Position numbers and translations under genes: made by a program. The notes under the pieces were generated by a model. It saw only the letters and a list, made by a program, of their open reading frames with translations. It searched no databases and was not told where the DNA came from. From Trichoplax sp. H2 (lineage: Eukaryota), in the NCBI GenBank assembly GCA_003344405.1, contig NOWV01000014.1:496001-560000 (forward strand): a stretch of DNA of 64,000 nucleotides. Reading direction: 5' to 3'. Shown here piece after piece: positions 4,150 through 64,000 of the stretch. Every line of letters begins with the position of its first letter. Within the stretch, counting starts at the first letter, position 1.

Positions 4150-6645
4150 GAGAGTCGTCTATTGATCTGGATAGAGTCGATTTTCTACATACGCGTGTAG
4201 GGAAATGGAATCTTGATGTTGATTTCAGTAGATTGGTATTTTATCCCGTCAATGATGTCTTCTAGGAGAGTCGTACGTATACTACATTGCTATACTGTAG
4301 ATACAGTTGATTTTGGACAGAGAATACGCATCTAGACAAAGTGGAATATTGATGTTGATCTCAGTCTATATTTTCTAGCCGTCCATGATGTCGTATAGGG
4401 CAGTATACTGCGTTGCTATTGATAAAGGAGATTTTGGACAGAGAATATGCGTCTAGAGAAGTCGAATATTGATGTTGATCTCAGCAGATATTTTCTAGCC
4501 GTCCATGATGTCGTATAGGAGCAGTATACTGCATTGCTATGGATAAAGGGGATTTTGGACAGAGAATACGCGTCTACAGAAGTCGAATATTGATGTTGAT
4601 CTCTGCAGATATTTTCTACCCGTTGATGATGTCCTATAGGAGAGTTGTACGAATACTGCATTGCTATTGATAAAGGGGATTTTGGATAGAGAATACGCAT
4701 GTAGAGAAGTGGAATATTGATGTTGATCTCAGCAGATATTTCTTAGCCGTCCATGATGTCGTATAGGAACAGTATACTGCATTGCTATTGATACAGTTGA
4801 TTTTGGACAGAGAATACGCGTCTAGAGAAGTCGAATATTGATGTTGATCTCGGTAGATATTTTCTAGCCGTCCATGATGTCGTATAGGAGCAGTATACTG
4901 CATTGCTATTGATACAGTTGATTTTGGACAGAGAATACGTGTCTAGAGAAGTCGAATATTGATGTTGATCTCAGCAGATATTTTCTACCCGTTGATGATG
5001 TCCTATAGGAGAGTTGTACGAATACTGCATTGCTATTGATAAAGGGGATTTTGGATAGAGAATACGCATGTAGAGAAGTGGAATATTGATGTTGATCTCT
5101 GCAAATACTTTCTAGCCGTCCATGATGTCGTATAGGAGCAGTATACTGCATTGCTATGGATAAAGGGGATTTTGAACAGAAAATACGCGTCTACAGAAGT
5201 GGAATATTGATGTTGATCTCAGCAGATATTTTCTACCCGTTGATGATGTCCTATAGGAGAGTTGTACGAATACTGCATTGCTATTGATAAAGGGGATTTT
5301 GGACAGAGAATACGCATGTAGAGAAGTGGAATATTGATGTTGATCTCAGCAGATATTTCCTACCCGTCCATGATGCCCTATAGGAGAGTTGTACGAATAC
5401 TGCATTGCTATTGATAAAGGGGATTTTGGATAGAGAATACGCATCTAGAGCAGTGGAATATTGATGTTGATCTCAGCCGATATTTCCTACCCGTCCATGA
5501 TGTCGTATAGGAGAGTCGTACGTACAGTATACTGTATCGCTATTGATTTTCTACATACTGTAGAATACGCATATAAGGAAGTCCAATCTTGATGTTGATC
5601 TTTGTCGTATTATTTGGCAATTTTCTATCGGTTAATGATGTCCTAGAAGAGAGTTGTAGGTACAGTATACTGTATTGCTATTGATAAAGGGGATTTTGGA
5701 CATAGAATACGCGTGTAGACAAGTGGAATATTGATGTTGATCTCAGCAGATATTTTCTACCCGTTGATGATGTCCTAGAGGAGAGTTGTACGTATACTGT
5801 ATTGCTATTGATTGTCTACATAGAATACGCATATAGGGAAGTCCAATCTTGATGTTGATCTTTGTCGATGTCAGCAGATTGGTATTTTCTATCCGTTCAT
5901 ATTCATGATGTCTTATAGGAGAGTCGTACGTATACTTTCTAGCTATTGATTTTCGACACAGAATACGCATACAGTATAGGGAAATGTTGATGTTGATCTC
6001 AGTGGATATTTTCTACTCGCCCATGATGTCTTATAGGAGAGTTGCATGTCTACTCTATCGCTATTGATTTGGACATGGAATACGCGTCTAGAAACGTGGA
6101 ATATTGATGTTGATCGCAATCGATATTTTGTAGGCGTCCATGATGTCCTATAGGAGGAGTAAACTGCATTACTATAGATACAGCTGATTTTGGACAGAGA
6201 ATACGCGTTTAGACAAGTCGAATATTGATGTTGATCTCAGTCGATATTTTGTAGGCGTCCATGATGTCCTTTAGGAGGAGTAAACGGCATTACTATAGAT
6301 ACAGCTGATTTTGGACAGAGAATACGCGTGTAGACAAGTCGAATATTGATGTTGATCTCAGTCGATATTTTCTACCCGTCCATCATGTCCTTGTGATAAA
6401 GTGATCTTCAAAACAATAAATCAAGAACTACAGTTTCTTGCAAATTTCACTTTATTACAGAAGTTAGGTTCGTCTAACTACCAAGGACTATCTGACAATC
6501 TACTTATTACAGCAAAATTCACGATTTATATACGATTAGTTACAGAATGCTTTTACTGTAACAAATCTTATCTTGTCCATTAAGTCGCAATATAGGAGGA
6601 GTAAACTGCATTGCTATTGATACGATGGATTTTGCACATAGAATT
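4150..6645. repeat. Tandem minisatellite array, about 120-127 bp unit, about 18-20 copies, several subtypes
   Basis: Anchor GATGTTGATCT recurs at about 4351, 4471, 4592, 4719, 4840, 4961, 5088, 5209, 5336, 5463, 5591, 5733, 5851, 5989, 6106, 6227, 6348. The repetitive minus-strand ORFs in the track are by-products. Confidence 0.95.
6391..6590. mobile_element. 200-bp insertion interrupting a satellite unit (solo-LTR- or MITE-like)
   Basis: The unit is cut between ATGTCC (6390) and TATAGGAGGAGTAAACTGC (6591). The insert begins TTGTGA and ends TCGCAA (imperfect inverted termini, TG..CA). No clear target-site duplication. Confidence 0.5.
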
Positions 6646-6678
6646 GAGTTTCTTTGGTCATTGTAATTGAAATGAGGG

Positions 6679-6945
6679 GTGAAAGAATTGGGAATCAGCC
6701 TTGCTATTTCTGGTGAAAGAATTGGGAATCGGCCTTGCTATTTCTGGTGAAAGAATTGGAATCGGCCTTGCTATTTCTGGTGAAAGAATTGGGAATCGGA
6801 CTTGCTATTTCTGGTGAAAGAATTGGGAATCGGCCTTGCTATTTCTGGTGAAAGAATTGGAATCGGCCTTGCTATTTCTGGTGAAAGAATTGGAATCGGC
6901 CTTGCTATTTCTGGTGAAAGAATTGGGAATTGGCCTTGCTATTCC
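6679..6945. repeat. 33/34-bp tandem repeat, about 8 copies
   Basis: Unit GTGAAAGAATTGG(G)AATCGGCCTTGCTATTTCTG repeated almost perfectly. Confidence 0.95.
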
Positions 6946-7208
6946 TCTCCATCAAAGGATTTCTTTCTCTTTCTTTCTTGCCTTATTGACAGTGGGAGGA
7001 CAGTGCTTTCTTTCTTTCTTTCCACTACGCTGGCGGTTGTTGTGATCGACTGCATACTGTACCCGCGTACACTGCGGCATGCATGAGTACCTCCAGTGGT
7101 ATCCACCGCAAAGTGCTATAACAATGTCAACCTTCTAGTGGCAGCCCAGCATGCGCAGTACCATCAACTCCATTTTAGGAATTGCCATCGCAAGTGTCAA
7201 TATTGCAA

Positions 7209-7424
7209 CTACGACAAGCAAAAAACTTTTGTGCCGGCGCTTTTTTATCCCATCTTGGCCACAAGATTAACGGGTAGCCAACTTCAAAGATCGCTACGAG
7301 AAGCAAAAGACGTTTGTGTTAGCGCTTTTTACCCCATCTTGGCCACAAGATTAACGGGTAGCAGACTGCAAAGATCGCTACGACAGGCAAAAGACGTTTG
7401 TGCCAGCGCTTTTTATCCCATCTT
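7209..7424. repeat. 84-85-bp tandem repeat, about 2.6 copies, abutting the DGK start codon
   Basis: CTACGA-A-GCAAAA...GCGCTTTTTA-CCCATCTT starts at 7209, 7294 and 7378. Confidence 0.9.
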
Positions 7425-7433
7425 TTGTTGGAC

Positions 7434-10400
7434 ATGTCCAAGATAAAATCGGACAAGTTAGGCCCTGAGGAGTTACAACAACTTCAGGAACGTATTCAAT
7501 GTAAGTATTTTATCGTTCATATAGCAATCCAATATCATCACGTCGCTTTCAACACCATCCATTTGCACTTGCAGTGGGGGGGGGCTTGTCGCATTTCTTC
7601 ACTCCAATCAGGCCTCGCAGGAGAGTTAGTCTGTAGGCAAATTACAAGATGATGGAGAGTCGTCGTTAAAAGACAGCAACCAATACAAGGGAAGGCTAGC
7701 ATAAGATGATGCAGTTTTCAGTCTAGTTAGCCTATGGCAAAAGAACAAGTCCCAGTCGATGAGGAGACGTCGCAAGGGTCGATTGGGAAACGATGCTAAT
7801 CCAATGGACCATTTCAAAATGATACAAAATATGGATGGGCAAATTGCCCGTCTTAACAATCTCCCTGTCCAACCAATTCAATCTGTTGAAGGAGTCGATC
7901 ATGTCCACTCCAGGAATTACTTCAAGGAGAACAGTCGACAAGACTCGTGCAATCCATTGGATCACTGTCAGGAGAACAGGCTACGATACCATTGCAATCC
8001 ACTCCAATGTCGGCCAACACTAAAATACATCCATTCCCTTGTACAGTAGGATAGACTACTACAACTTATTTCCAATCGCTATCACTCAATATCCAAATGG
8101 AGACATACTGTACAGTAAGTGCACAGTCGGATCATCATCATCAATCTACACTTAGTAGCGAGGGAAGAGGGCCCCAAGCAACTTGGATAACGGTCAAGAC
8201 GAAATGCAATTCAACAGGATGCTCTCTCTCGCCAAGTAAATGGCCACGGCATTCCTTTTTAAATGCCGTGTAAACCCCTTGATTGATACAACAAGAAACT
8301 GACTTAGTCGACTTGGCTGTAATTGCAGTAGTTTTTTGCCAAGTGGACTAGCAACTTGTCATCGAGTGGCAAATTGGAATGTCCACATCAACTACTTTAG
8401 TCTAGTAGGAAGAGAGACTCTATTTTCCAACGATGCAGTGCGATCGCCACAGACGATTCCTCTACAGCCATGGACTGAGTCAAGAAGCCATCAGCCATGG
8501 AAAATCAGAGTCTATTTGCCACCAAATTGTCTATCCATTAAAAGGGAAAAGTAATTCATTCCATACTCCATGATGGATAGGCAAAAGTCAAACTGAGTCT
8601 ACCATACGGACGCCGATGATTCATTCCCAAAGGCAATTTCCCTTGATCGGATAAACTACAATCACCGATCGCATTTCTTGCTAACACACACTCTTGTCTT
8701 GATGATCGCCAAAAATGCAATCCTATCATGGAGTATGTCTTTTTCCCCCCCTTCCAACCACAGCCATGTTTGTAGACGGGATGTTGGATTGTATTGAACG
8801 GCTTGGTTAGCAATTCATTCCTCTTGATCTGATGATGGTTGCAAATGGGGACATTTCAAATGGATGAGGACAGTTGCGGGCTCTTTCTTTCATTTCCTCA
8901 CTGTTTTACTACCGATATGCAAATTTGCATAGGCAACCAACCTAGAGGATGGATGATGACACTGAAAACCCTTTCCTTTTTTATTTTTACTTTCTCTTTG
9001 CCTATTTTATTTTCGTTTTCGTCTGCATACAGTAGCCGATGTCAATGGACTCCGCTAGCATCCTCAATCATGCCATTGCTGCCGATAGAATGGGTTTTTT
9101 TTTTCTCCCCCCTATATGTACACCATTTTGATTTTCCATCATCATTCCGTCATCGACCGTTCACAAACGAAACAGGAACGATTACATCGATGATGCTACG
9201 CGGTGAAATGAATTTGCAATATACATTTCTTGACTTGATGTTCAACGTTGAAGAAGAAGAAGGATGATCCCCCCCAAATAATAAAAAATACAGTAGGATG
9301 GGAATAGAATGATTCATGTTGGATCATTGGCCATCATCCTACCTACTGGATACTGGGGAATGGGCACCACTCAGACATTTTCCTTTGCAACAATGGCGTC
9401 TTTGATCAGCGGTAGGTTAGCGTTTTTGCCATAGTATTGATTGAGCCGGATTGAATATCCTTCAAGAGGATCCATGAGTTAACTGCTGTCATGGCATGCA
9501 AGATGCTTTGAATAGGATTCTTTTCCACCGTACAAGGCAATCAACGATGATCGTCGATATGCAATGGGTACAGTAGAAATTTTTTTTTCCCTTTTTTTGG
9601 AGTGGGGAGAAGAAATGGACTTTTACTATCATTCCCTCATGAGACTAGACCTTCATTTGATTGTACATTGTACAATAAAATGAAGGCAATGAAAATTAGT
9701 GACAACCTGGACTGATCCGAATATCTTCATCGCGGCTAATTCAGCCACCAATGAAAACTTTGACGACTTAGTCTTGCCGCACATCAACATGAATTGAGTG
9801 TAATCCAATGCTCGCTAGACTTGGATTGTCTAGCGTAGTACTAATGGATCGTTTTCTTATACGACAAAAAGTATTTTCTTGCCCTATGTAAAAACCGAGA
9901 GGGTAAAAGGGGGATAGGAAGAGAAAAACTAGATAGGAAAATGTCTCCATTTTTCAATACAATGGTAGCCTAGCAATGCAGGAGTGTGGGTAGTAGGGTA
10001 GGCACCTTTGGCAATTTTTACGGGCCCCATCATGAAGAAGAAGTTGTAGTTGTGATCGTCAAGAGGCTGTTGGCTGTCAACGATGCCATGGAAAAGGACT
10101 ATCAATGACCATGCTAACAATCCTGTGGATGGCTTAGGAAAAAAAGGAAATGTTGTCGTTGTGACTACCCTAGACATAGGCATCATTGTTCATTGATATT
10201 TTCCTCCCGTCAAGAGATGGCTTGTCTTCATGATTTATTGTAGTCAATATTGATTCAATGGTAATCTTGGACATGCAATGGCAAAATACATCAACCAATG
10301 AATCCAACAAGGAAAATGCAACTCCAGTGATGAGTTGTATTGATCATCAAGTCGTGATGGGATTCAAAAATGGTCATGCAGATTGTTTTAGTGCCTATCG

Positions 10401-13400
10401 ACATTCTTGTCCACAATGCAAATTCAAATGGACAAGTTCATTTAGCGCTTGGTTATGTTGATTCTCATTTGATGGCAGTCAATATTGATTCAAATTGGGA
10501 TAGGCAAAATGCCTACTGGCTAGGCGCAACACTATTTACAGTCGATTCTTTCTAGTGATCGTTCCACTCCTCAATCGAAGTTTAGATTGCCTTCGATATC
10601 GATTGAAAGTGTAATCTTAGTTAGACGTGGATTAGACCAGAGTCGATTCTTTCTAGTAACCATTCCACTCCTCAATCGAAGTTTGGATTGCCTTCGATAT
10701 CGATTGAAAGTGTAATCTTAGTTAGACGTGGATTAGATCAGAGTCGATTCTTTCTAGTAACCATTCCACTCCTCAATCGAAGTTTGGATTGCCTTCGATA
10801 TCGATTAAAAGTGTAATCTTAGACGTGGATTACATTACTGTACAGTCGATTGGTTCTAGTAATCATTCCACTCCTTAATCGAAGTTTAGATTGCCTTCGA
10901 TGTCGATGGAAAGTGTAATCTTAGACGCGGATTAGATTACAACATTCACTGACTGGATAGGGAGGGCATCATGGAGAGTTGATTTAGCCATTGGTTGTAT
11001 CCATCATTCTAGTCGTCATTTTATTGCAGTCAATATTGATTCAAAATTGGAATCTTAAGCGCTATTAAAGCACAATGTTATTGCAATCAATCTTGATTCA
11101 AATTGTTGTCATGTTGGACCCAATGGAGGAGCGATTGGTTATATTGATCATTTAGTCAAGTTATTGGGCAATCCATCTTGATTGCTTGATTGCCCAATTT
11201 AGTGTCGATTGAGCGATTGGTTATGTTGATCATTGGCCGAATTGGATAGCAATCAATATCGATTGCAAGGGAGGATAATATGGCCACCATGGACAGTTCA
11301 TTTGGCGACGATTGGTTATGTTCATTGGCCGAGTTGGATAGCAATCAATATGGATTGCAAGGGAGGGTAATATGGCCACCATGGACAGTAGTTCATTTGG
11401 CGACGATTGGTTATGTTGATCATGAGCCAACTTGGATGGCAATCAATATGGATTGCAATTGTCATATTGACATGCAGTAGATTGGGGGGGAAAAAAAAAA
11501 AAAGGCATTGACCAGTAGAACATAAGCTATGCAAGATCAAGCATAAAAATCTTCAAGTCCCAGGATAAAATGCCAATTCTAATGACATTCTACGATCATT
11601 TGTCCTTGATGATGCTAATTGCTTTCTTATTGTCAGTAATGACTGGACGATAGGGTAGGGATGGATAGTGTTATTGTACTCTATGATTGCTTGAAAGCAT
11701 GGAAGGAAAAAAACAAGGAAATGAAACATGCCACAAATGGATAATCAAATTGCACTGCAATGGATCTATTGGATATCCAGAGTACCATGGATGATGATGG
11801 CTTGCCAAAGTTTTGATAGTTTTTATTTTGGGCAAACGGATTTTGAAAATTGGCGAGAGGGAGGCTCTTTTAAAGCTACAAATGAGTATGCTGTGCATCC
11901 TTTTCTGTCCTACATCAATAACAGTAGATCCAATATCAGTCTTGGATTGCACTGTTTCAAGCTCTCCCATTGGAGAAGATGGTTTTGCTTTTTGAGTAAG
12001 CAGTAAAACGATATGGAATAGCCCATTCTAGTAGATGAGCAAAATACATGCATTGAAAATGAATCCAATATTGTGAATTGGCTTCTCCCTATCAAGGCAA
12101 TGGACGATTGGATCCATATGGGTAGTCATGGAGGGATAGAGAAAAGCCAATCCAGTCGATCCTGTTTATTTGTGCATCCGATTGATTTCTTAGTCCTATC
12201 TTTGTACGCCCATTTCATTTCGTCCACCTTGTTCAAGCGTTCTTCCTTGGATATCATCATACAGTATCATGGATCAATTAGACCATATTGCTGACCGCTT
12301 TCCTGCTGTTACGATCCCAGTTTAGAGAAGCATAAAAAAAAAATTCAGCCAACATTGAAATTGGAAAAAATGCACACGCAATAATCCATTCTCTTCCATC
12401 TTACACCATGTGAACATTGTCGTTTTGAAACATGGCAATGCTTGGACATGCTTTAATAACACTACTCATAGCGTCTCCATTAGACTACATAAACCACTTT
12501 GATAGCAAGTTCAATCCAAGATGGCTGTATTCGATAGTTGACGAAGTAGGGAAAAGAAGCCAAGGTTGCCTAAACTCATTCTTCATTGGATACAGTGATA
12601 TCGATTTCACTGGCTCCATGATAGTCATAGTCCAGACAAGAGAATTACTCTATTGGAAGAATGTTGCAGAGCACTAGTGCTGCTCTACCATGCTTCTTTT
12701 GCATGGCGATATCGATTTCGTTTTATCAACCATATGGATAGGAAAGAAACGATACTTGCAATGGCTTCTTCTTCTTCTTCTTCTTCTTTTGCACTGCGAC
12801 ATTGATAGCCAGTCGTGTAAAAAGAGAGTTGTATTGGAAGAATAGTGGCGATGTTGGGGGAGTAAAGCTAGCGGCTGCCTTTTCTCATAGGGATGCTAGG
12901 ATATCGATAATGTTGATCGCTTGAATGGAAGACTATTTTGCTACTAGGGAAATGGGGCCCCATCGCTATTTTACTTTACGCTATTTTTTACTTTACGCTA
13001 TTTTTTACTTTATCGCTATTTTACTTTACGCCGCAGTCTTCATTTCCTAAAGGCTGTGGCGATATGACTAGGACTAAAACTAAACCATTTTTTTTTCTTG
13101 TCGACTCCATCCTCTCCAATGGATCCTAATATCCTATACGTCACTAGACTACATCATTCATAGAGAAGAGGACAAGAAAATACTCTATCGACTATACCGA
13201 CATTTTTTTTCCTGTGCAAAGAATCCACTCAGTGTGAAGATTTTTTTCCTCTTCCCCACATCAACTTGAAGAGGTAGCAATAGAGTAATGGTTGTCTACA
13301 CTGTTCAATTGACCATTTCTTAATGGATCATTGATCAGGATAAGATAGAGTAATGAAAAATCATCTAAAATGGCTAGAAGACAAAGAAATACATCTACAT

Positions 13401-16400
13401 GTAGTAAACTCTTCATCTTAACCAAGTCAATCGATGGCAGTTTGATATGGATGGATAGGCTTATTATTGATGTAGTAAGATGGAAAATGAACTGGAGAAT
13501 AGAAATGAATCAATCCATGGATAGTTATAGTTAGGAACATCTATTGATGCTAGTGACAATTAGATCTATTTTGATTTTTCAATCAACATTTATCCAACTA
13601 GACTAGACAAGGGGAATAGCAATGGAGATGGAGATGATATTCAAGTAGGTATCAAAAATCAATTTTATCCTTGTAATAGACAAGAGCAATGATGTCGATA
13701 CTAGTCGAGAAAGGAGAGGCAATGGATAGAGAATACCATGGATTGAATTGAGATGACTTAACGCCCAGACATTGAACATCATTAATTTATAATCAATAGG
13801 AAGACAACTCCCAAGCCTCCATATTTGATTCATGACAGTGGGCTAGTCTGGATACTATTTCACAGTAATTCTATCAATTATTCAATGGGAATAGAATGCA
13901 ACACTGTTGAAAGGTGTTCTTCAACGCCATGACTTTGTTATGTTGAATGATCTAGTCAATAAGGGAAGACAGTAGAAATTGATACATTAATTGCTTAAGG
14001 AAAATACTATAAAGGCAATGCTTGCAATGGCAATTTGACTTGTGGATACGTTGCTTATGCCAATGTCGATGCAACTTGCAAGGTTGGAAGTAATGGACAA
14101 TGTTATAAATATGAGATTCCAAAAGGGAAACAACATCCATGGATTTCTCCTTGCCAATGTTGTCACTTGCTAAAAGTAGATGCAATTTCATATTAGGATG
14201 ATATTATTCATCAATCGCTACCAATGCATTGCAAAAAGCAATTAACATCCATGAGTTTCTATTTGCCAATGTTGTCACTTGCTAGAAGTAGATGCAATTT
14301 CATATTAGGATGATATTATTCATCAATCACTACCAATACCTTGCAAAAAGCAATTAATATCCATGGGTTTCTCTTTGACGATAGCGTCCCTTGCTAGACT
14401 AGACCCAGCTTAAAATGGTCATCAACCACCACGAGTAAGTTTAAAAAGGTAATTTATATGGATAAGGAGAGACCCAGTTGACACGAATCTTTCATCAGCA
14501 TAGACTACTTGACCATCAACTACTGTAAATTAGAAAGGGAATTTAGTCATAATAGCGATAAGTTTTTCTTTGCTATCGTCGTAACTTGGTAGTGTAGACT
14601 CAGTTGGCAATGATGATCAGCTTGGACTACTTGATCATCCAAAACGATAAATTTGAACAGGAAATTGGCTAAAATAGAGCATCCGAAACGATAAATTACA
14701 AAAGGAAATTCGTTAAAATACATCATCCAAAACGATAAATTACAAAAGGAAATTCGCCAAAATAGAGCATCCAAAACGATAAATTACAAAAGGAAATTCG
14801 CCAAAATAGAGCATCCAAAACGATAATTTACAAAAGGAAATTCGCCAAAATAGAGCATCCAAAACGATAAATTACAAAAGGAAATTCGCCAAAATACATC
14901 ATCCAAAACGATAAATTACTAAAGGAAATTGGCTAAAATAGTGATCAGTAGCCAGCGCGGTAGCTTACTAGAGTGGAACTAGCTTAGAANNNNNNNNNNN
15001 NNNNNNNNNTTCATCAGCATAGACTACTTGACCATCAACTACTATAAATTAGAAAGGGAATTTAGTCATAATAGCGATAAGTTCTTCTTTGCTATCGTCG
15101 TAACTTGGTAGTGTAGACTCGGTTGGCAATGATGATCAGCTTGGACTACTTGATCATCCAAAACGATAAATTTGAACAGGAAATTCACTAAATAGAGCAT
15201 CCAAAACGATAAATTACAAAAGGAAATTGGCTAAAATACATCATCCAAAACGATAAATTACAAAAGGAAATTCGTCAAAATAGAGCATCCAAAACGATAA
15301 ATTTGAACAGGAAATTGGCTAAAATAGAGCATCCGAAACGATAAATTACAAAAGGAAATTCGCCAAAATACATCATCCAAAACGATAAATTACTAAAGGA
15401 AATTGGCTAAAATAGTGATCAGTAGCCAGCGCGGTAGCTTACTAGAGTGGAACTAGCTTAGAAGGATAATCGACATAGACTACGTAAAATGGATTAGCTA
15501 CTCCTTGCCACTGCTGTAGCTTGATCATATCGGTCAATTTGACGATGATGATAAACTTGCATTACTTGATCACTAACAATAATCGATTAGCAAGGAAAGA
15601 ATTTGCACTTCCATATTTCCATATTTGCCATCGCTGTAGCTTCGTTTCAAAGGAGTAATAATAATCAATCATCGTAGTGAGTCAATAATCGTAGGATATA
15701 GTCTTCTCTCCTTTTATTCCTGATTCAATCTTACTTGTTGTTTATGAAATTCTCCTTCTTACCCATGTTATGACTAATCATTTTGGGGTATGAATCATTT
15801 TATCATCCTTGACTGAGATCATTCTCTGATCGTTTTATCTTGGATTCTAATTCTATTTTACTACTGCTATTAGAAATTCTCTTTCTAATCGACAACGATT
15901 GAGAATCAAGTATAGCAGTTTAATACCCATTAGACTATACATTACGGATGATGAGAGGAATAATCCTTTTGCAGTCGTTTTATTCCTAATTCCAATTCCG
16001 TTTTCATCATTTGTTTGTTTGTTTATTGAATTCTCTTTCTAATCAAACGTTGTTCATAGTCATGTATTCTACATTAAATAGCCATTGGAAGGGTATACTA
16101 TTGCAATAGTCATGGGAAATAATCTCAGGATCATCTGCTATCGTTTTATTGCTGATTTAAACTCCATTTTTTGACTACATCGTGATCGATTTCCTTTTCT
16201 AATCAACGTCCAGTTTCTGATAGACCGGTATACAAAGTTCATATGCCAATTTGACTAATACTCTATTATCAAGTATCAGGGATAACTTGACGACTCAATA
16301 ATCATAATAATGATAATCTTATCCAAATTGACCATCATATACTTTCAATACTTCAAAAAAAGAACCTTGTATACAAAAAATGAGTTTTACTTCCTATACT

Positions 16401-19400
16401 ATTGACATTAGATAGACAAATGATGTTAACTCCGGATCTGAATACAATTGCTACAATATTTAAAACTACCTCTCCAATGTTTACTCCGATTTGAATGCAT
16501 TATTATCTGTCTCTAAACTATGTTGATGTATGTATAAAATAGTGTAAGAAAAATAATTTCAAATATGATGACTGCAAATGAGTCAATTCATGTATTCTAA
16601 TGGAGATAGGAAGATTCATGTAATAAAACTGGCATAACATAAAATCAATCCATCTTCCTTTGCACATGCAATAAGTGATATACAGTATTGTATGCTAGAA
16701 ATGGAGCTGCCATAATGATTTATCTTCAAAGATAGCATGGATCTATTTGGATTACTAGTGGATACTTTTATACGTATGACTATTCTACTTGATCAATCAT
16801 GGACTTGAGTAATTTATTCATTTCAATTATACTTTTACACTATTTTGTCGTTAGAATCTATTTTTTTCTCCCGCTACAGCTGTCTCAACAATAATCTACT
16901 ATTCTACTCTCTTGACTCTTTCTATGACTGGTTGAGTACTTAAAATAGAAAAATTCTCTTGTTTAATTTGACACCATCAATAGAATATAGAATCATTTTT
17001 ATTCTCCTTTTGACGTGCCTACTCTGTTTGCATGAACAATTGTATTATTTCAATAATTGACTATTTAGCCAAGAATGATCATTCTATTGATTATTTCTAG
17101 CTTAGTGGTTCACAGAAATCGTGAGTATTTTCAATCAACCTTGGTCTAAAAGTTTATCTTTTGACTTTATCCAAGGGTTTCCTATTCTTACCTATTCATT
17201 ATCAATGACTCATGATCTACTATTAATATTAGTACGACATCAAGATAGGCCAAAATCGGTGTCGCATCTTATCCAATTTGCAACTAAAAATTTCATATGG
17301 AAAGGATCCTGTAATAGACGAATAACTGCCATACGAGTAGCTTACGGTTGGATACTAGATCTTGAAATAGTGCTACTTTCGTGCTATACGTACATATAGC
17401 GTCGTATAGCTTGATAGTGGAGGATAAATTGAGCTCAATTTTTATTGCTTGCTGCTAATATTCCATCGGCTTACGATAATATAATATTAAAATTGACCAT
17501 GTGCCCCTTTATCTAAACCGACAGAGAGACTTATAGTGTTCTAGCAAGAGTTATTGATTCCTTTTTTAGTAATTGTCCAATTCCATATTTATCCTTGATT
17601 ACCTTGTTATCTAAAAGCGACAGAGAGACTTATCATGTTACAGCAAGAGTTATTGATTCCTTTTCTAATAATTTGTCAAATTCCATTTTTATCCTTGATC
17701 GTGGTATAATGTGGCATATCTTGAGCTATAGTCTAACTTACATGACTACAACACGCGTAAATACTTGTGCTTGTACTTATTATGGACAACAATTTTCCAA
17801 TATGGTTGCAATAAAATACCGCGTATGTCCTATGCAATATGTGGAAACAGGAGTATATAATTCGATTTGAACCAGTAAGAATTGACTTTCCATCTAACCA
17901 TACCAAGGTTATTTTTTGGCTGTAATGGTTGATTGCAATTGGTATTGCCTTAAATTCAACGTTTGTACCGTAGTTAGAATAATTTAGTATTCATTTATAT
18001 TGTTGGATGTTGGCAATGAGCATAAAGTATAATTTATTATGTGTAGTCATAATCGAGCGTATAGGTTAGGCTCTGGCTCAGACTACAAAATAAGCTATTT
18101 AGTTGTTACACTTGATAGAAAGACTTTCTCTATTCCTCAATTTGGCAATTGCTACCCATACTGTCTATTGTACGAGTGTTTACGATCAGTTTCTCTCTCT
18201 CTATACACTGCAATATTACAGTAATCTTGGCTATTATAATAACTGAAATGTTTTCGTATTACAAAATGACTTTCTAATCCTTTTTCATCGCTTCTTGTAC
18301 AGTTAGTTGACAATAATATAGTACGAACATCAAACAAATTTTTCAATAAAGGACAAAATAATATGGTATGCTAAGATGTCGGACAATATATTAGGATATA
18401 GTACACTGATAGAGTAACAATTACTTTTTACCACAATAAGAATTCAAGAGGTAGATGGATAATCCATTACTCGTAAAATTGCTTTTCCTAATAACATCTT
18501 AATTCAGTTATGGTTCAAGTAGAGTATACATACGCGTAAATGATGTTATATCGATTGAAATTTTATATCCTGTGACAAAAATTATTCGTTTTGAACTACC
18601 TAAAACCGTGTTGTCCTAGAACTTAATGCATAATCTGCTGTCACTGAAATGACTTGATTCTCTAATATCTTCGTTTTTGAATTGGTAACGAAAAGTGGAT
18701 TTACAAGCGAAGGAGTAAACACAATTGAAGCATTTTTAACAACAATGCGAACAGACTATGTTATACCTACTCTAAATTATCGGTTTGGTATTGGATCTTA
18801 TTAACATATTGAAACATAATTAAAACGCTTTTACAAGAGAGTGAAATAGTAGTTCATTGAAGGCATTAATTAATCTATTATTGGTATCCACAGCGGCTTA
18901 CAGTACCACATTAACGTGTAGACTAATACTTATAGAGTAAACTACCTATACCTATAAAGTGTAAAGTAATTCATGATGTTATTAGCCAAGTACGTTAACC
19001 GCTATATTGCCTACCTGAACATAAATATCTTGATAGTGATTACTTAAATAGACTCGTATAGATCGAAGAAGAATATTTCGGAACGACAATTACAATCATT
19101 TTAGGTCTTCCCTACTACATTATTACGAGTACAATTATTTTTCCTGACTTCCTGTTATTTGGATTATGTAACTATCTAATCTTTCTCACTAATATCATCT
19201 GGATTATAATTATATACAGATCATACATTTGCAATAACTTTCATGAAATTATATCTATAAAATTGTAATCACCGTTTTTAGATGCTAGGAAAAATGTTAA
19301 AGACGTTCTGCAAGATTTTAGGTCATCATCGCAAGAGGTTGCAGAACGATTGGCTCCCAATAAGGTAATGCTACACTCTGTAATGAAAAACGTCAAGTTG

Positions 19401-22400: not shown

Positions 22401-24735
22401 AACGAAAATTAAATTAAAAATTTAGATTGCACCATTAGAAAATTCTGTGCCTTTAATTGTTTACGTTAACCCAAAGAGTGGCGGTCAGCAAGGAAGGAGG
22501 TAATTAATATCATTATTAATAATAGTAATTTTATATGCTTTACCAGTAGTTAAAATTGTAGTAATACAGTACTGTACTTCAAGTTATTATTTGGTGGGTG
22601 ATTTGGTTTATGGCTGCGCTTCACGGAAACATAAAATTTTTGTGTATGAAAAATTATATCTATTTTGTTACATTATCTTCTAGAACGCTACAAAAATTTC
22701 AGTATCTATTAAATCCTAGACAAGTATATAACTTGCTAGATGGTGGTCCAACGCCAGGGTATGAATTTTTTTATTGAATATCTACTGGTATACCAAATTA
22801 TTCCAGTACATAAAAGCTAATAAACTTTAGATGATGACAATAAGGTGTTAATTCTAATTCTAATTCTATATTATTTCACTTATATACTGTACTACATGTG
22901 GCATTCTTCAAATTACAAATCAAACAGCTTGAAATTTATTCGTAATGTACCCAATTTTCGCGTTCTTTGTTGTGGAGGAGATGGAACAGCTGGCTGGGTT
23001 CTAGCAACAATCGGTTAGAAAATCATCTTAAATGTGTCGCGATCCTACTAACTACGATCTTGACATGCTTTAGGAGCGTAAGAGATTAGATGATTTTAAT
23101 TGGTCTGATACATTTGGTAACATAAATTTTTTCAGATAAGATGGAGATAGATCCTCCACCGCCTATTGCAATCTTGCCATTAGGTAGGCGCTACTATGGC
23201 AATGTTTGTTTTCGATGTACATTACAATGCAACTTATTCAGCCTCATTTTAGTAGATAGATATACTACATTTTTAAGTTTAATTACTAGACGTTGAAGAT
23301 TGATATCTTTTTATAATTTAGGAACTGGAAATGATCTTGCAAGATGGTTGGATTGGGGTGGTGGTTACGACGGTGGAAATCTTTCTAAAATATTACAGCA
23401 GATTGAGCAAGCTGTTCCAGTATCTCTAGATAGGTAAGAGATTTAGGATAGTTAATACGATTTATGGCAATGCTTTGAGAATGAATGGATACATTTCAAC
23501 TTTAGTTTTATGTTTTATACAATGTTTCAACGTCTTACTTTCTTCAATAATGCCAAGGTGGAATATTGATATCTCCGCATTTGAGGGTCTTGAAGGTAGA
23601 GGCGAGCCGGTACCACTAAATGTGTTTAACAATTACTATTCGATCGGTGTAGATGCTTCTATTGCGCACAAATTTCATACCATGAGACAGAAGAATCCAG
23701 AAAAATTTAGTAGCAGGTAATAAAATATCAATCTTGGATTTCCCAACAACGCTAACCAATGTTGTACCGCTTTCTAGATAATTTACTCAATCCATTCCGT
23801 TATTTTAGGATAAAAAACAAGTGGTTTTATTTTGGATGTGGTGCTGAAGAGCGCTTATCTAGTAGCTGCAAAAGTTTAAACTCTCATATAGACGTAATTG
23901 TATGTGAAATCTGCATTGTGCAATACCTTATATTCAATGTTATTCAGTGGTAAGATAAACTAAAAATAAGCGTTTACATTTACAGTGCGACGGAAAGGCA
24001 ATCGATTTAACTGATACATCATTAGAAGGAATCGTGATTTTAAATATTCCCAGCATGTATGGTGGTACAAATATATGGGGTAATACTAGCGAAAAGAAAA
24101 AGTCAAAGAAGAAAGAAGCTCAGAAGAGCTCACATAGATTTGTGCCTCAAGGTTTAAAGCTTAATAAATGTTGTCCTTCATTATCTTATGATTCCTGAAC
24201 TTTATCTTAATTTTTTGCATCCTTAGTTCCGAATGATCGATTACTCGAAGTCGTCGGTTTAGAGAACGCTAGTCATGTTGGCCAGCTTATTACTGGCTTA
24301 CGTGAACACGGTGTGCGACTAGCTCAAGCATCAAATATAGTTATACGGTAAAAGAAGATATATAGAAGTGCTAAAGTTGAGGTTTTTTTACTCTGGACGC
24401 CATTCTTTGTACGTAAAGTTATCGAGATGATATAATATTTATACTCTATACTATTGATTACTGTAGAACCAAGAAAGAATACCCTATGCAAATTGATGGA
24501 GAACCTTGGATTCAGCCACCATCAACGGTATAATAGATTCATAATAGTTTCATATATTATAATCAATGAGGATGTCGTGAATATAAATAATTTTTCGCAT
24601 CTAATTCATTTACAGATTCGAATTACATTCCGTAATCAAATGCCAATGTTACAAAATTTTCACCGATCGCGTAAAGTAAAATTACTTCCGTTCGTAAAAA
24701 GACGTTCACGTTCATATAAGTATCCGGGAACTTAA
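7434..24735 (+). CDS. DGKB: Type I diacylglycerol kinase (DGK alpha/beta/gamma co-ortholog): RVH, 2 EF-hands, 2 C1, catalytic and accessory domains; 26 coding exons
   Basis: Exon 1 7434-7500 ([22 protein letters not shown], phase 1) joins exon 2 19282-19364 ([13 protein letters not shown]). Later exons encode [44 protein letters not shown], two C1 domains ([22 protein letters not shown]), [39 protein letters not shown]; stop ends at 24735. The symbol is the closest vertebrate paralog and is not resolved. Confidence 0.93.
10200..11465. repeat. Degenerate repeat family, about 95-bp period in its best-preserved part
   Basis: GATTGGTTAT at 11133, 11215, 11310, 11405; AGTCAATATTGATTCAA-like motif near 10242, 10477, 11028, 11085. 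Confidence 0.7.
10539..10940. repeat. 101-bp tandem repeat, 4 copies
   Basis: GTCGATT...TTCCACTCCT-AATCGAAGTTT-GATTGCCTTCGAT starts at 10541, 10642, 10743, 10845. Confidence 0.95.
12966..13030. repeat. 15-17-bp tandem repeat, 4 copies
   Basis: GCTATTTT(TT)ACTTTA(T)C repeated. Confidence 0.85.
14130..14400. repeat. 112-bp tandem duplication, about 2.4 copies
   Basis: TTGCCAATGTTGTCACTTGCTA-AAGTAGATGCAATTTCATATTAGG at 14151 and 14263, with a degenerate third start. Confidence 0.9.
14491..15463. other. Gap-flanking duplication (probably two unmerged haplotypes) around 20 N at 14990-15009
   Basis: 14491-14989 and 15010-15463 are colinear and differ by a few substitutions and about one 44-bp unit. 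Confidence 0.8.
14635..15414. repeat. 44-bp VNTR present on both sides of an assembly gap (about 7 and about 6 copies)
   Basis: Unit AAAATAGAGCATCCAAAACGATAAATTACAAAAGGAAATTCGCC; arrays at about 14635-14940 and 15154-15414. Confidence 0.93.
17509..17700. repeat. 98-bp tandem duplication
   Basis: TTATCTAAA..GACAGAGAGACTTAT...AGCAAGAGTTATTGATTCCTTTT at 17509 and 17607. Confidence 0.85.
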
Positions 24736-26140
24736 TCTCCCAAAGTTTATGTAGCGATCATCAAATCTATCAGAATGATTAATTTTCCTGGCGAAAGAGC
24801 TCATGGAAACTGTCGTAAAATTTCTGATAGTTCCATTATACATCGATACAAAAGTTTAGGGGTAAATCTCCTTTCTTTCACGATTGTTAAATCAGTTTTA
24901 CCGCACAGTAGATTTTTTTGCTTGTTTTTATATACTGTAATTGGTTAGGTTTCCAAAGTATCATACTGCAAGCTTTTAGAGAAATTGCTTTTACGTAATG
25001 CGATTTTATTTGTACGTTGGTGATAGGCAAAAGCATTTACTGTAGGTTTATATTTAATACAGTAATAATCACCTATTTGATTGCAAATTGAGTGTAGCAC
25101 GTCAGACCAAAGGTACTTATTATTTATTAAGCTTGCATGCTATAAACTTTTAAGCTTGTAGTCAAACATTAGTAACAAATGCAATTACTTTTCAATATAT
25201 TATTCTGCAATAGTTCTTATGTTAATTTTTTTGAGTATATCATTTCTTTAGCAAAACGATTTTCACCTGAAAAACAAAATGTTAAAATTTTTCGTCTGTT
25301 ATGTAAGCAATATCGAACTTAATTTTGTCATTTCCGCCGATTCAAATTATAAATAATTAAAGCTTGGGTATACATATTCTTTAAATAAACATAATTTCAC
25401 GTTATTTTGATGTATACCGAGATAATGATATAAAATTATTTAACCTATATATTGTATTTTGTCGGTATTATCACACGAAAATTGATTAATTTTTGAAAGA
25501 GAAATCTGCACCACTATGTTATCATTTAAGATTGTTTTTCTTTTCTTATTGTTCGTTTTATCCATTTCAAAATAATACGGGATTTGGAGTACCTCTACTC
25601 CAACCTAATACAAATCTATGCTTAAACAAATAATCTAATCTGCATATAAAAGTCAATTTAATATTATTTATACGCGTATATATCTTTATCGATCAAACAC
25701 ATTATCCTTTTGATAGAAATTATGATATTTATATTATCACGTTGTAAAAGAAGATTTAAGTCAAGTATTATTACTATTCTAATTGCATTGTAAGCTTTAA
25801 ATTACGAAATTAATTATTACGCTGTATTCAAACTTTACTCCTAGTATTGGAATGTTTCTCAATTTTCTTCTATATCGACTTCCATATTGCAATCACTCTG
25901 ACCACAATAATAAACATTACTAAAGTAATCAATGGTGTAAATGCAATATCGAAATGGATTGAATTAAGTAAAATGAACTTTATTTCTGACGCATTTTATT
26001 GGCAAATTAATTATAATTAATAGATGGATCATCTAACAAAGAAGACGATTTTTAAGTAAATATCAGACTATTTTACAAGTAATGCAAATAATAATATTTC
26101 AACATTAAGACGATGGTGATAAAAAATAGCATTACTGCAA

Positions 26141-31231: not shown

Positions 31232-31392
31232 GATAATCTTGATGAAGATGATGTTGGCTTGTACTGAGTTTCACTGGATAGCTAATTTTCCATTCCTGCA
31301 GGTTTCGATCTCAATCGGAGGGCAACTACCTATAATACAACCAATACCTGCAGTCCGTCAACCTACGGACCTACACTGTATTACAGTTTCTG

Positions 31393-32844
31393 ATTGAGAA
31401 TCGACATGGAGAACAGCTTAGTTTAGCATTATCATCATTACCTCTACTGTATTCATTGGATTTCAGCTTATTAGCGAGTTGGCTGCCATCTTCATTCCAT
31501 TTCTGGCTCGAAAATCCTTCAACGACGATAGATTTGATTCTATTTTACTCTCACGACTGAATCCGAATCCACTCTACCAGAATACTATTTTACTAAGCGA
31601 TGATTGGATTTCCGTTGGTTACTATGGAAATGAACAGTCTACAGTACTGAGTAGGGTAAGTTAGCAGTACAGTACAACAAATCTACAGTACATACTATGG
31701 GCTCGGGCTACTGCAGGACGGAGGGACAGGCAAACGACGGGCCAAAGCTACAACGCAAATCCAACTGTCTGCATAGTACAGTACTGTACTGTTAGTCTGT
31801 TTTTACTGTGTGTATATTGGTAAAATTGACTGCAATGGCAGCCAACAAGCTCGGATATGTTTGTAGGATTTTGTCACGAAAGGAATCTTCGTGATTGATA
31901 CTTTATTTCTATGTTACCTTCTCTATACGTTGATGCCTCAGAAATGTTTTACGGTCTCCTTAATTGTTGTAACTGCAGTGGTTAACGCTTGATATCCTTA
32001 ATTGAGGATTAGATAGACTAAAATAGTAATTGTCCACCAGTTCAACTGGATTGTATCTATCANNNNNNNNNNNNNNNNNNNNATTGAGAATCGACATGGA
32101 GAACAGCTTAGTTTAGTATTATCATCATTACCTCTACTGTATTCATTGGATTTCAGCTTATTAGCGAGTTGGCAGCCATCTTCATTCCATTTCTGGCTCG
32201 AAAATCCTTCAACGACGATAGATTTGATTCTATTTGTAAATAGTTCCTGCGCTTACGATGCAAGAGTCTTATATACTGTATATACAACTTACTTTACTCT
32301 CACGACTGAATCCGAATCCACTCTACCAGAATACTATTTTACTAAGCGATGATTGGATTTCCGTTGGTTACTATGGAAATGAACAGTCTACAGTACTGAG
32401 TAGGGTAAGTTAGCACTGTGTACAGTATTTTTGGCTTACCTGTACAGTGTACAGTACAGTACTACAAATCTACAGTACATACTATGGGCTCGGGCTACTG
32501 CAGGACGGAGGGACAGGCAAACGACGGGCCAAAGCTACAACGCAAATCCAACTGTCTGCATAGTACTGTACTGTTAGTCTGTTTTTACTGTGTGTATATT
32601 GGCAAAATTGACTGCAATGGCAGCCAACAAGCTCGGACATGTTTGTAGGATTTTGTCACGAAAGGAATCTTCGTGATGGATGCTTTATTTCTATATTTCC
32701 TTCTCTATACGTTGATGCCTCAGAAATGTTTTACGGTCTCCTTAATTGTTGTAACTGCAGTGGTTAACGCTTGATATCCTTAATTTAGAATTAGATAGAC
32801 TAAAATAGTAATTGTCCACCAGTTCAACTGGATTGTATCTATCA
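31393..32844. other. Gap-flanking duplication of the REV1 upstream region (probably two haplotypes) around 20 N at 32063-32082
   Basis: 31393-32062 versus 32083-32844; the second copy has net +59 and +38 bp insertions, lacks 5 bp and carries scattered substitutions. Confidence 0.8.
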
Positions 32845-32982
32845 TCTCCTAACTTGTTAAGGTTCAAACTTAAGTGGTTAACGCTTGATATCCTTAATTT
32901 AGGATTAGATAGACTAAAATAGTAATTGTCCACCAGTTCAACTGGATTGTATCTATCACCTCCGAAGTTGTTAAGGTTCAAA
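32759..32982. repeat. 114-bp tandem repeat, 2 copies
   Basis: GTGGTTAACGCTTGATATCCTTAATTTAG...GTTAAGGTTCAAA at 32760 and 32874. Confidence 0.9.
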
Positions 32983-45061: not shown

Positions 45062-48000
45062 TACGGTACAGCAGTTAGATGTATAATAAAAAGTGTAATA
45101 TGGCACAATATGGAAGTGTCTAGCTAACATTTTGGACATTCTGGATCCCTGGTAGATAATGTACAGTGTCATGAACTACTAGAAAGAAGAGAAAGGGAAT
45201 AGACACGATCGTTGCCGATACAGGCGATGACCAAACCGATTTTTCTGCAGGTCATTTCAAGTTTCCACCATGCTCCGAATTAGCTGCCAGATTGATTTTA
45301 TACAGTTACAGCTGTAGTGTATTGTAAAATGAATGATAAAAAAAGATCGGTCTCCTCATCTTTTGTAGCTTTCGTCTAGTCTTGGTCCTGGATGTCCCAG
45401 ATGAAAACAATAATATTGTATATTGGACTGTGCTGTACCATGAACTACTAAAATACAGCTGCATCTAGTAGTCCTTGAGTGGAATGCATTACTGTCTGCG
45501 CTATTGACATTTGATTGTTTCCACTCTATTCAATATACCGTAGATAAATGTTGCAACTAAATGGGCCAAAAGTATCGATACAATGTCGATTTCGTCAATC
45601 GAACACGAATCTAACCGAAGTCTTCCGATAGTAAATAAAATAACATAACCAGCAAAATGGCGTATACTCACTGTAGTGTGTAATAGGGTCGATGGGAGCA
45701 TGTCCGTCCGTCTCTTTTCTTTCTGGACAAGTTGCCTACAGTACTGTAGTGGATCGTTACGGTCCAAGTGTACTGCAGCGTCTAAAGTACTGTACAGTAC
45801 TGTACGTACTGTCTTAGCTACACCTGACCAGACGGACAGGACATTTTAAGAGATTTTCTTCTCTTTTAATTATTAATATGGCTTTATAACGTGCTGCTGG
45901 CTCAATGGACGGCGGTTATTGTTGCAAATCGTCAAGGGTAAATCTTGCCCTTGACAATACTTGTGAAATAATCACAATATAAATTAGCCAAAAATAAATG
46001 CTACATAACTGAACAGAACCTGTCTGGCTTACAGGCGTTTACTGAGCAGTAGTATGCAGTAAATGAAGCATAGAAAACTGGTTGATATTGGAGATGAACT
46101 CTGTGGGAAAAGGGGAGAAATCATCTCATAGCTCGACGTGAAACTTTATTGCAATTTTTTTTCTAATTACCAGATTAGAGTAAATCCACGTTTGATACAA
46201 TAGAATAGATGGCATGCCAATGTTGATCAAATCCCAACTTAGAAAGTAGTTATAGTGATCTGAAAATTCAGTATGGGATTTGTATCAAAATACTGTAGGA
46301 GCCGTCGTAGATCACGAGTTTGGGTGGGGGTTAGGATACGGTGAAACAGAGACTACTTTGGTATAAAGATGCTGCTGAAAAATTTCATTCATTCCACTTT
46401 AATTAAATATATATATATATATATCGATATAATTACTGAATTAGACAGATAGTTGATACGCTAAGGGCCCATAGGATGAAGATATTTTACTTTATCATAC
46501 AGTGAACTAGTGATACAGTACTGCCAATCATATTATTACCATTGCTTCAACTTTTGTAGGAAAAACAAGAAGCAATTCAGCGAATGGATATTTGCCCTAC
46601 TGGGGAGAGAAAACTTTTAATGTCGTAGAAATCCCTCCCTCACCACATCACACACATTTAACAATGGTCTAGAATTTATATTACCGTCTGTAGATAGTTG
46701 CATCATGCAAAGTAGTCTACAGCAAATGGACAAATAAGGACCTTTCATACAGCTATGTTTTTGATGACAGTCCTTGTTTCCTTCGGATTCGGATGCATTT
46801 AATACGTGTATTAGAAAATTGATCATGTTGTAGCTATACGCGTATACTGTAAATGTTCAATTATTTTGTAGGTATATCTATTTATCTATATTGTTGACAG
46901 AAAAGGAGACTTGAATATAATGTGCAGATGTCTTTATTTTTAATATTTTACTTCTATTATTTAGTAATTCAATAACTTTCTACGTGATGGCCATTAATAG
47001 TACAATTGCTATTACTATCAATTGGGGATGAATGGAAATGGCATGACTACTATACTATCCCTTGACTTACAGTATACATAAACTCGGTTGAAAACTTCGA
47101 TATAAAAAGATAATAATAATACTAATAACATAAAACACACCTAAATAAGAGTAAATAATAAAATGTTACTATTATCCATCTGTAATTTTGTCCTTTCCAA
47201 ATTAGAATCAAAAAAGGTTGAAAATACCACGGCTTTACCATGCCGAATAGCGATGAAAAAAAAGAAAAAAGGAAACCACCCCTGAAGATCAATTTATAAG
47301 TTCAAGTTTTATCCTGCAACGTTGAATCTTGAGATAAATTAAAAGTCTTTTGTCATAATTTAGTAGCGCTTGAACTGGCGATATACTATGCTATATACTC
47401 TATCAAGATACACTATCCCAACATTTTATATACATTAATAATATTATAATAATAAAACATAGGTTAAGTTTTGTTTCTCTATCTTTTCTATGTGTACATT
47501 TGCAACATACTATGGTGACTAACTTTTAAACCTCTTAAGACAATCACCGAATACCTCACCTAGGGTTTAGGTAGTGCCTCTCATAGGCACTTATACATTC
47601 AATCTCTAGTAAACGTTACTTAGTTGTACTATTCCATTATGATAACCCTATCTAATACTACGAAGGAGGAGAAATAAATGCTTCAAAATCGAGCAGTGCT
47701 GTTGCAAATTAAAAGTTATTTAAAAGCTACTATTCTAATTTTGCACAACTTTTGAAATAAAGTATAACGACGACGATGACGAGAATAATTAGCTGACAAA
47801 TTAAAATGTCAACTTTTTATTCATTTATCAAGCATTCTTTACTTTCACATTTGCAAAACTGCTCATTATCATTATGATGCATGCACACCTTATGTATAAT
47901 GTAGTAGAATATCTTTCTTATGCCAAATACATCGATATCAAACTGAAGAAATAGACCAATAATTAATACGCCGTCAAATAATCATTATAATAATAATGAT

Positions 48001-63904: not shown

Positions 63905-64000
63905 GTATGTAAGCCAAATGTTAAAAATGTGGGCGAAATCAGTTTTTATATTAATCCACTGCGTTGATGTAAAGTAGTGGGCGATTGATTTCCATCGATT

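Follow-up and report, generated by a model that had tools for sequence, protein, structure and literature searches.

Which process could have set the same seven bases, TACWGTA (W being A or T), over and over again into otherwise unrelated surroundings in the genome of a placozoan? The question is raised by a stretch of 64,000 nucleotides of Trichoplax sp. H2 (contig NOWV01000014.1, positions 496,001 to 560,000 of the forward strand), which we call the window and whose own numbering is used throughout. We propose that these heptamers are footprints left at excision by a cut-and-paste transposon that belongs to the Tc1/mariner/pogo superfamily and has the ends 5'-CAG…CTG-3', a reading to which we give a probability of roughly 0.78. 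The idea had been put forward in a sequence-only reading of this DNA, which started from a satellite array. In the window we observe a gain of 5 bp at TA, a constant CWG between the two TA, parity of A and T centres, unique flanks, avoidance of exons and chains of units with mixed centres. Statements on the whole genome are extrapolated from this one 64-kb window or taken from the papers cited.

TACWGTA occurs 84 times in the window, against an expectation of 11.61 (standard deviation 3.2, largest count 22) from 100 dinucleotide-preserving shuffles, none of which reaches 84. No other 7-mer of the window exceeds its expectation under a dinucleotide model as strongly (84 against 11.2, z = 21.8). 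Among the 64 words of the form TA-NNN-TA, for which the median lies at 1.24 times expectation, TACTGTA (44 against 5.7) and TACAGTA (40 against 5.5) are unmatched at 7.3–7.8 times; the third and fourth ranks are held by the centre variants TACGGTA (9 against 2.3) and TACCGTA (8 against 2.2) at 3.7–3.9 times, and TACSGTA (S being C or G) taken together is also enriched (17 against 4.5). The excess decreases with the order of the Markov background, being 4.6-fold at order 2, 2.7-fold at order 3, 2.0-fold at order 4 and 1.2-fold at order 5, because the sub-words of the heptamer themselves carry the signal and come to define the background. A maximal-order k-mer test is uninformative for a word with co-enriched sub-words, and fixed orders 1–5 were used instead.

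The full T…A flanks are present on 84 of the 214 ACWGT pentamers of the window, which indicates that the unit is the heptamer and not the pentamer. Read on the plus strand, the centre base is A in 40 cases and T in 44 (binomial p = 0.74), without strand bias. The 84 words make up 77 loci (71 single, five double and one triple) with mutually unrelated flanks, and the single-unit loci show no partial units. Self-BLAST of the window returned tandem repeats only and no dispersed repeats; taken with the unrelated flanks, this argues that the loci are not a repeat family. Chains aside, gaps of less than 50, 100 or 200 bp between loci are not significantly more frequent than between random TA sites (P = 0.25–0.36). 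Other conceivable footprint shapes, namely TACGTA (15 against 14), TACNNGTA and TACATGTA (3 against 2.3), show no enrichment in the window, and TACTA/TAGTA, at 1.3–1.4 times expectation, lie inside the spread of the background model.

The satellite from which the sequence-only reading had started allows the birth of the heptamer to be followed, its sister units serving as empty-site controls. Tandem Repeats Finder (TRF) describes the array at 4189–6391 with a period of 121, 17.6 copies and 78% matches, and gives higher-order periods of 248 and 369 as well. In a MAFFT alignment of 17 units, inspected together with the raw sequence, copies longer by five bases stand out at four positions of the repeat; at three of these a single unit is affected, at the remaining one a pair of neighbouring units. 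The longer form CTATA-CTGTA-GATAC (CTATACTGTAGATAC) at 4290 is paired with the shorter CTATAGATAC at 6172 and 6293; CTACATA-CTGTA-GAA (CTACATACTGTAGAA) at 5551 with CTACATAGAA at 5816; CGCATA-CAGTA-TAGG (CGCATACAGTATAGG) at 5966 with CGCATATAGG at 5828; and CGTA-CAGTA-TACTG, present as CGTACAGTATACTG at 5521 and as GGTACAGTATACTG at 5659, with CGTATACTG at 5791. A string search recovered, in place, all eight satellite strings quoted in the sequence-only reading. Parsing of the self-BLAST gaps returned 5-bp insertions at 4293 (11 high-scoring segment pairs, HSPs), 5522 (6), 5556 (8) and 5659 (6); the site at 5970 adjoins a second indel and was not given by the parser as a clean 5-bp gap. The claim that four positions of the unit had each gained CAGTA or CTGTA after a TA is borne out at 4293, 5556 and 5970, which are singletons among the 17 units, so that insertion is the parsimonious direction there; at 5521/5661 the polarity is ambiguous.

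That fourth site touches the history of the array itself, in which two unit types, one of 127 bp and one of 121 bp reading GGAG-CAGTATACTG (a perfect 10-base palindrome), are combined in a 369-bp higher-order repeat over 4351–6347. Removal of the 11 bases AGTCGTACGTA from the footprint-bearing unit gives the 121-bp type (127 + 5 − 11 = 121). Two histories are conceivable: the 121-bp type had a scarred unit as its ancestor, or the unit that looks scarred is an intermediate and the 5-bp difference a deletion; the commonest unit of the satellite may itself derive from a scarred one. TACTGTA at 5530–5536, as well as at 5668 and 5795, is not a footprint, the unit alignment showing a C-to-T change in the native TACTGCA of the unit. 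At its far end the last satellite unit is broken by about 198 bp (6392–6589) and resumes at about 6590 with …ATATAGGAGGAGTAAACTGCATTGC…; the ends of this segment are not TA-CAG, and it could be an unrelated insertion.

Two further events lie outside the satellite. In a 101-bp repeat (10540–10940) one unit reads …ATTA-CTGTA-CAGTCG…, and the ends of the array read …TTACAGTCG… and …GATTACAAC…. The other event distinguishes two near-identical copies (31390–32062 and 32083–32845) which disagree at 11 of 665 aligned bases (1.65%) and are further set apart by indels of 59, 38 and 5 bp. Here, at 31777, CAGTA was gained beside CTGTA and is hence not an exact tandem copy of its neighbour. The pair may be a young duplication, or two haplotypes set in tandem by the assembler; the 5-bp event between copies of 98.35% identity is young under either origin. 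Taken as possible haplotypes, this single pair contains one CAGTA indel and no filled allele. The assembly has two 20-N gaps (14990–15009 and 32063–32082), each between near-identical neighbouring copies: those around the first (14491–14989 and 15010–15463) are about 87–88% identical, and the pair around the second resembles two haplotypes assembled in tandem. The 38-bp indel (32411–32448) consists almost wholly of CAGT/ACTG pieces (TACAGTA, TACAGTG) and adjoins a (CAGTA)2-3 run; both a complex scar and a deletion are conceivable origins.

In all six paralogue comparisons (4293, 5523/5661, 5556, 5970, 10836 and 31777) the empty site is a TA (at 10836 in the form taken from the array ends), TA stands on both sides of the added CWG, and the inserted sequence is CAGTA or CTGTA. 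Among some 20 distinct and well-supported paralogue indels of 2–12 bp, the change from TA to TACWGTA accounts for five, or six if 5970 is included, and 5 bp is the modal class. The sequence-only reading had suggested that a count against a Markov background and a spike of 5-bp indels would support it. On the scale of the window the enrichment is strong and the 5-bp indels between paralogues are almost entirely CWGTA at TA, one of them separating the 98.35%-identical copies that are perhaps two haplotypes. Its broader statement, that the many TACWGTA copies are scars, is strengthened by this enrichment and by the six insertions at TA, and has to be given up for the copies at 5530, 5668 and 5795, which arose by substitution. 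The coordinates of all features are collected in the table.

Table. Footprint-type insertions, chains of units and other features of the window (window numbering).
Feature	Positions	Strand	Basis and remarks
Satellite array of 121-bp and 127-bp units with a higher-order period of 369; sister units are empty-site controls	4161..6392		TRF, self-BLAST, unit alignment
TACTGTA, 5-bp insertion at TA, in a single unit only	4293..4299		Empty form CTATAGATAC at 6172 and 6293; 11 HSPs
TACAGTA, 5 bp longer than CGTATACTG at 5791; polarity ambiguous; shared with the next unit	5523..5529		Alignment, self-BLAST
TACTGTA, 5-bp insertion at TA, in a single unit only	5556..5562		Empty form CTACATAGAA at 5816; 8 HSPs
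TACAGTA in the adjoining unit; probably a single event copied along with the unit	5661..5667		Alignment, self-BLAST
TACAGTA, 5-bp insertion at TA, in a single unit only	5970..5976		Empty form CGCATATAGG at 5828; by eye, alignment, string search
Double chain, mixed centres	8106..8117		Chain listing
TACTGTA, 5 bp more in one unit of the 101-bp tandem repeat	10836..10842		Empty form (…ATTACAG…) inferred from the array ends
Diacylglycerol kinase (DGK) gene	~19.5-24.2 kb	+	Pfam on stop-to-stop open reading frames
Double chain, mixed centres, in the DGK gene region, with no coding match there	22565..22576		Chain listing, Pfam scan
REV1 gene	25220-31231	-	tblastn with the Trichoplax protein
Near-identical pair 31390-32062 / 32083-32845, separated by a 20-N gap	31390..32845		98.35% identity
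Chain TACAGTACTGTA	31777..31788		Sister copy 32564-32570 has TACTGTA only
Double chain, identical centres TACAGTACAGTA; the sole pure chain	32450..32461		Chain listing
Double chain, mixed centres	45737..45748		Chain listing
Triple chain TACTGTACAGTACTGTA, followed by a partial unit	45788..45804		Chain listing

A plausible mechanism can be written in four steps. The element would insert at a TA and duplicate it; the transposase would then cleave the non-transferred strand three bases inside the element, leaving each flank with TA and a 3' CAG overhang. In end joining the two overhangs would anneal by a C:G and a G:C pair, with an A·A mismatch left between them; its repair to A or T would complete the change from TA to TA-C(A/T)G-TA, a gain of five bases. 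The near-equality of A and T centres (40:44) is expected from such a pathway, because the A·A mismatch may be repaired either way. According to an excerpt of PMC6943129, the canonical footprints of Sleeping Beauty are 5'-TACAGTA-3' or 5'-TACTGTA-3' and arise by non-homologous end joining (NHEJ) after the formation of 3' overhangs, the non-transferred strand being cut a few bases inside the element, and on this point the sequence-only reading, which had called TACAGTA/TACTGTA an established footprint of this type, was correct.

New hits on the TA of an old scar would lead to chains TA(CWGTA)n, and pure chains would seed the (ACAGT)n microsatellites that dominate in this genome. A and T centres are mixed in five of the six tandem chains of the window, which together with the 40:44 ratio fits independent repair events and not slippage. 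The one pure chain, at 32450, would be such a seed of an (ACAGT)n repeat. Behind the triple chain (45788–45815) stands CGTACTGTC, which resembles a further unit, partly deleted or mutated, giving at least four apparent hits at this site.

The distribution of the heptamer with respect to genes was the other point on which the sequence-only reading had asked for a comparison, and around REV1 coding and non-coding DNA do differ. The exon alignments of REV1 (about 3.6 kb) contain no TACWGTA site (P = 0.006), and the whole 6-kb span of the gene contains a single one, at 30644 (P = 0.002). In the DGK region, the site at 22885 was checked by reading and lies on the upstream side of the intron acceptor at a kinase exon. 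Avoidance of exons fits selection against frameshifting insertions. The 1.4 kb just upstream of the 5' end of REV1 (31232–32600) hold 14 of the 84 sites, a count that takes in both near-identical copies. A bias of ACAGT repeats towards gene 5' regions has been published, and the density here matches it; the cause may be that insertions occurred where the chromatin was accessible.

That bias belongs to a wider observation of Wang et al. (2010, PMC2871265), who considered perfect repeats longer than 12 bp (supplement 1) and found pentanucleotides to be the commonest class of Trichoplax microsatellites (61.8%). ACAGT was the top motif with 5624 loci, or 78% of the pentanucleotide microsatellites, and ACCGT was the fifth commonest pentamer with 95 loci (supplement 4). 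The authors called the dominance of ACAGT unexpected, suggested a role as a transcription-factor site and left the matter to future study. The (ACAGT)n loci lie mostly within 1–5 kb upstream of genes (54% and 85%), and those in part 1 of the 53 parts of supplement 5 have lengths of 15–40 bp and show strong clustering around the 5' ends of genes. A repeating ACAGT motif was also returned for Trichoplax by a neural network trained on Hi-C maps, and is left unexplained in the accessible part of that preprint (10.1101/2024.11.14.623548). A shift of phase turns (ACAGT)n into TA(CAGTA)n, a footprint chain of the pure kind, and ACCGT is the centre-C/G variant corresponding to the enriched TACSGTA words of the window. 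Excision footprints are a likely explanation of the dominance of ACAGT among the microsatellites of Trichoplax. TAGAGTA/TACTCTA are enriched in the window as well (30 against 11), and these words and TACGGTA/TACCGTA correspond to published minor microsatellite motifs, ACTCT (61 loci) and ACCGT respectively. A link between placozoan ACAGT or TACWGTA and transposon excision was not found in the full-text literature searched, the scope of which excluded subscription journals and Repbase Reports. The excision mechanism is textbook knowledge; what is new, within that literature, is its signature on the scale of a placozoan genome and the link to the ACAGT microsatellites.

Several observations weigh against this proposal. 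In order to find the element, every TACAG was paired with every CTGTA 40–6000 bp apart and the 24-base terminal inverted repeats were scored; no TA-CAG…CTG-TA element with inverted repeats was found in the window, at least 16 of 24 terminal matches being reached by 2 of 1242 pairs, no higher than for five control end words (0–6 pairs at 16/24). Pfam likewise gave no transposase domain in 201 of the 210 stop-to-stop open reading frames (ORFs) of at least 55 aa, nine overlapping satellite ORFs having been left out, and the only convincing domains were those of diacylglycerol kinase and REV1. We therefore infer the element, together with its transposase and the time of its activity. Transposons are scarce in Trichoplax, at 0.13% of the genome, and were called inactive (PMC2871265); in the accessible part of a comparison of two Trichoplax genomes they are described as not significantly shaping them (PMC6057997). 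Preferences around the target are weak, with a depletion of T at -1 (0.15 against 0.30) and no significant TA adjacency at the TACWGTA loci (p = 0.09), too weak for a transposase family to be assigned from them. The chains contain 7 extra units where random re-hits of TA predict 1.06, an excess of about sevenfold (P = 0.0002, 5000 simulations), so that the simple model needs an addition, which could be hot spots, repeated insertion into the donor site or a measure of slippage. By a rough estimate, the 5624 pure (ACAGT)n loci of at least three units also exceed what iterated random hits alone would give, and slippage or hot spots must therefore contribute to the longer arrays. Finally, the 5-bp difference at 5521/5661 is ambiguous in direction and could be a deletion.

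The scarcity of transposons is compatible with the scars if the element moved conservatively, each hop then leaving one scar without any gain of copies. A transposase with CAG-type terminal inverted repeats, for which the sequence-only reading had proposed a search, did not turn up in these scans of the window; Tc1-, pogo/Tigger- and mariner-like fragments have been published for the genome. T. adhaerens has 11 fragments of the Mariner/Tc1 class, the best matches being Tc1-like (nematode, fishes), Tigger1 and several mariners (PMC2871265, supplement 2), and three fragments of this class have complete ORFs but no inverted repeats (PMC2871265, text).

The alternative that survives best, unlikely as we consider it, keeps the scars and changes their author. 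A TA-targeting cut-and-paste system outside strict Tc1/mariner could be responsible, for example a pogo/Tigger-like element, another superfamily that duplicates a 2-bp TA, or a domesticated transposase acting on short substrates. A footprint discloses no more than that the target was TA, that the element ended in the three bases CAG and that the cuts were staggered by three bases. The ends of pogo and Tigger also begin with CAG, and ISL2EU gives 2-bp duplications. Both a Tigger1-like ORF and ISL2EU matches have been reported from the genome (Table 2 and supplement 2 of PMC2871265). However, the single-copy transposase ORFs without inverted repeats (PMC2871265) cannot alone supply CAG ends at some 10^5 sites, and a system of this kind is a sub-case of the footprint explanation, from which nothing in the window separates it.

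A little less probable is slippage, by which the heptamers would be by-products of (ACAGT)n arrays and a single TACWGTA a minimal or decayed array. (ACAGT)n is indeed the dominant microsatellite of this genome (PMC2871265), the sevenfold excess of chains is what such a process might leave, and the chain at 32450 is pure. Slippage, though, copies an adjoining unit, and an identical neighbour is found at none of the six paralogue insertions, five of which occurred at a plain TA and the sixth (31777) as CAGTA beside CTGTA. Nor are the arrays pure, five of the six chains mixing A and T centres, and of the 77 loci 71 consist of one unit only, between flanks that are unrelated and free of partial units.

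We give still less weight to the possibility that selection near promoters has preserved or multiplied TACWGTA/ACAGT because it serves a function, for instance in transcription-factor binding or in the organisation of chromatin. Such a role would agree with the upstream bias of (ACAGT)n (54% and 85%) and the clustering in part 1/53 of supplement 5 (PMC2871265), with the ACAGT motif in the accessible part of the Hi-C network preprint (10.1101/2024.11.14.623548), and with the 14 of 84 sites in the 1.4 kb upstream of REV1. Selection leaves unexplained the exact 5-bp birth at TA, the presence of the word in a satellite and an intron, and the equality of A and T centres; moreover, chains aside, the loci are no more clustered than random TA sites. 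A later co-option of scars would be compatible with the footprint reading and is not a true rival to it. Chance, base composition, or an artefact of assembly or sequencing can practically be dismissed: the excess is only 1.2-fold at the fifth Markov order and the two 20-N gaps betray an imperfect assembly, but no shuffle in 100 reaches 84, the fall at order 5 is expected from the sub-words, the sites avoid exons, and we know of no sequencing error that yields CWGTA specifically at TA.

Returning to excision footprints, their density of about 1.1 per kb, if assumed to be at equilibrium with mutational decay, would mean, by a rough calculation, that a scar arises about once per 130 substitutions. 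By extrapolation from the window alone, the genome would carry about one scar per kb, or roughly 10^5. The sequence-only reading had spoken of very frequent transposition, which does not follow; it would suffice that a low-copy, non-replicative element hopped at a modest rate for a long time, and a few copies moving at ordinary Tc1/mariner rates could supply the input of scars. A fuller scenario is more tentative, and we give it slightly less than an even chance. In it, a low-copy Tc1/pogo-like element, moving non-replicatively and repaired by end joining, would have scarred about one TA per kb, in all some 10^5 sites, preferentially near gene 5' ends; re-hits would have seeded (ACAGT)n, and the same repeats would now appear as a motif linked to chromatin contacts.

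Why ACAGT should make up 78% of the pentanucleotide microsatellites has been a question since 2010 (PMC2871265), for which the footprint reading offers a concrete and testable mechanism. It also revises the view, taken in PMC2871265 and in the accessible part of PMC6057997, that transposons have not shaped this genome. Cut-and-paste movement with end joining and without growth in copy number is recorded as scars and is therefore invisible to repeat masking. If the fuller scenario is true, DNA transposons have left their main mark on this genome as footprints rather than as elements. The scars would then be a mutational signature open to measurement and a fossil record of the regions accessible in the germ-line or stem-cell genome; should the promoter bias hold, they could report ancient chromatin accessibility. 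Between one-quarter and one-third of the well-supported paralogue indels of 2–12 bp in the window are of the scar type, and could serve to date and map past transposition and to correct indel models. An enrichment of ACAGT near genes or in Hi-C-trained models is not evidence of function before this mutational bias has been accounted for.

The remainder of the window, which has a G+C content of 33%, is non-coding or unannotated outside DGK and REV1 and rich in tandem repeats. Within the REV1 gene, a 349-aa ORF on the minus strand (29157–30206) is 99% identical to REV1 of Trichoplax adhaerens (TRIADDRAFT_53871), the next best match reaching 33%. ARAGORN found no tRNA gene in the window, and no Rfam family was found there at gathering thresholds. 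The region 6678–17699, without recognisable genes, is unusually dense in independent minisatellites, with periods of 34, 84, 101, 92, 17, 112, 44 and 99 bp. A 239-aa open frame on the plus strand (63193–63912) with runs of Q, H and P and no Pfam match is probably a low-complexity exon of a regulatory protein that runs off the window.

Among known systems, Tc1 and Tc3 of Caenorhabditis elegans share the TA target, CAG-type ends and NHEJ scars; they cut two bases inside the element and leave different scars, and TACATGTA, at 3 against 2.3, shows no enrichment in the window. The ends of mariner sensu stricto (Mos1/Himar1-like) are not known to begin with CAG, and no other TA-NNN-TA word nears the enrichment of TACWGTA. 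The internal eliminated sequences of ciliates are bounded by TA and have an end consensus of the TAYAG type, for which an origin in Tc1/mariner elements has been proposed; their excision is programmed and precise and leaves a single TA, whereas five extra bases remain here and nothing points to programmed elimination. The (ACAGT)n excess of Wang et al. (2010, PMC2871265) concerns the same pentamer, and its ACCGT matches TACSGTA; that study was limited to perfect runs of more than 12 bp, and single units, the TA context, the 5-bp insertion and excision were not considered in it. The closest likeness is to the Tc1-like Sleeping Beauty, as described in the excerpt of PMC6943129: the target is TA, three terminal bases are kept, the centre is A or T and the net gain is 5 bp. 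The footprints of Sleeping Beauty, however, are known from experimental donor sites, whereas those described here have become fixed in the genome of a natural organism, with a density of about one per kb and no element in their vicinity; their host is an animal reported to be almost free of transposons.

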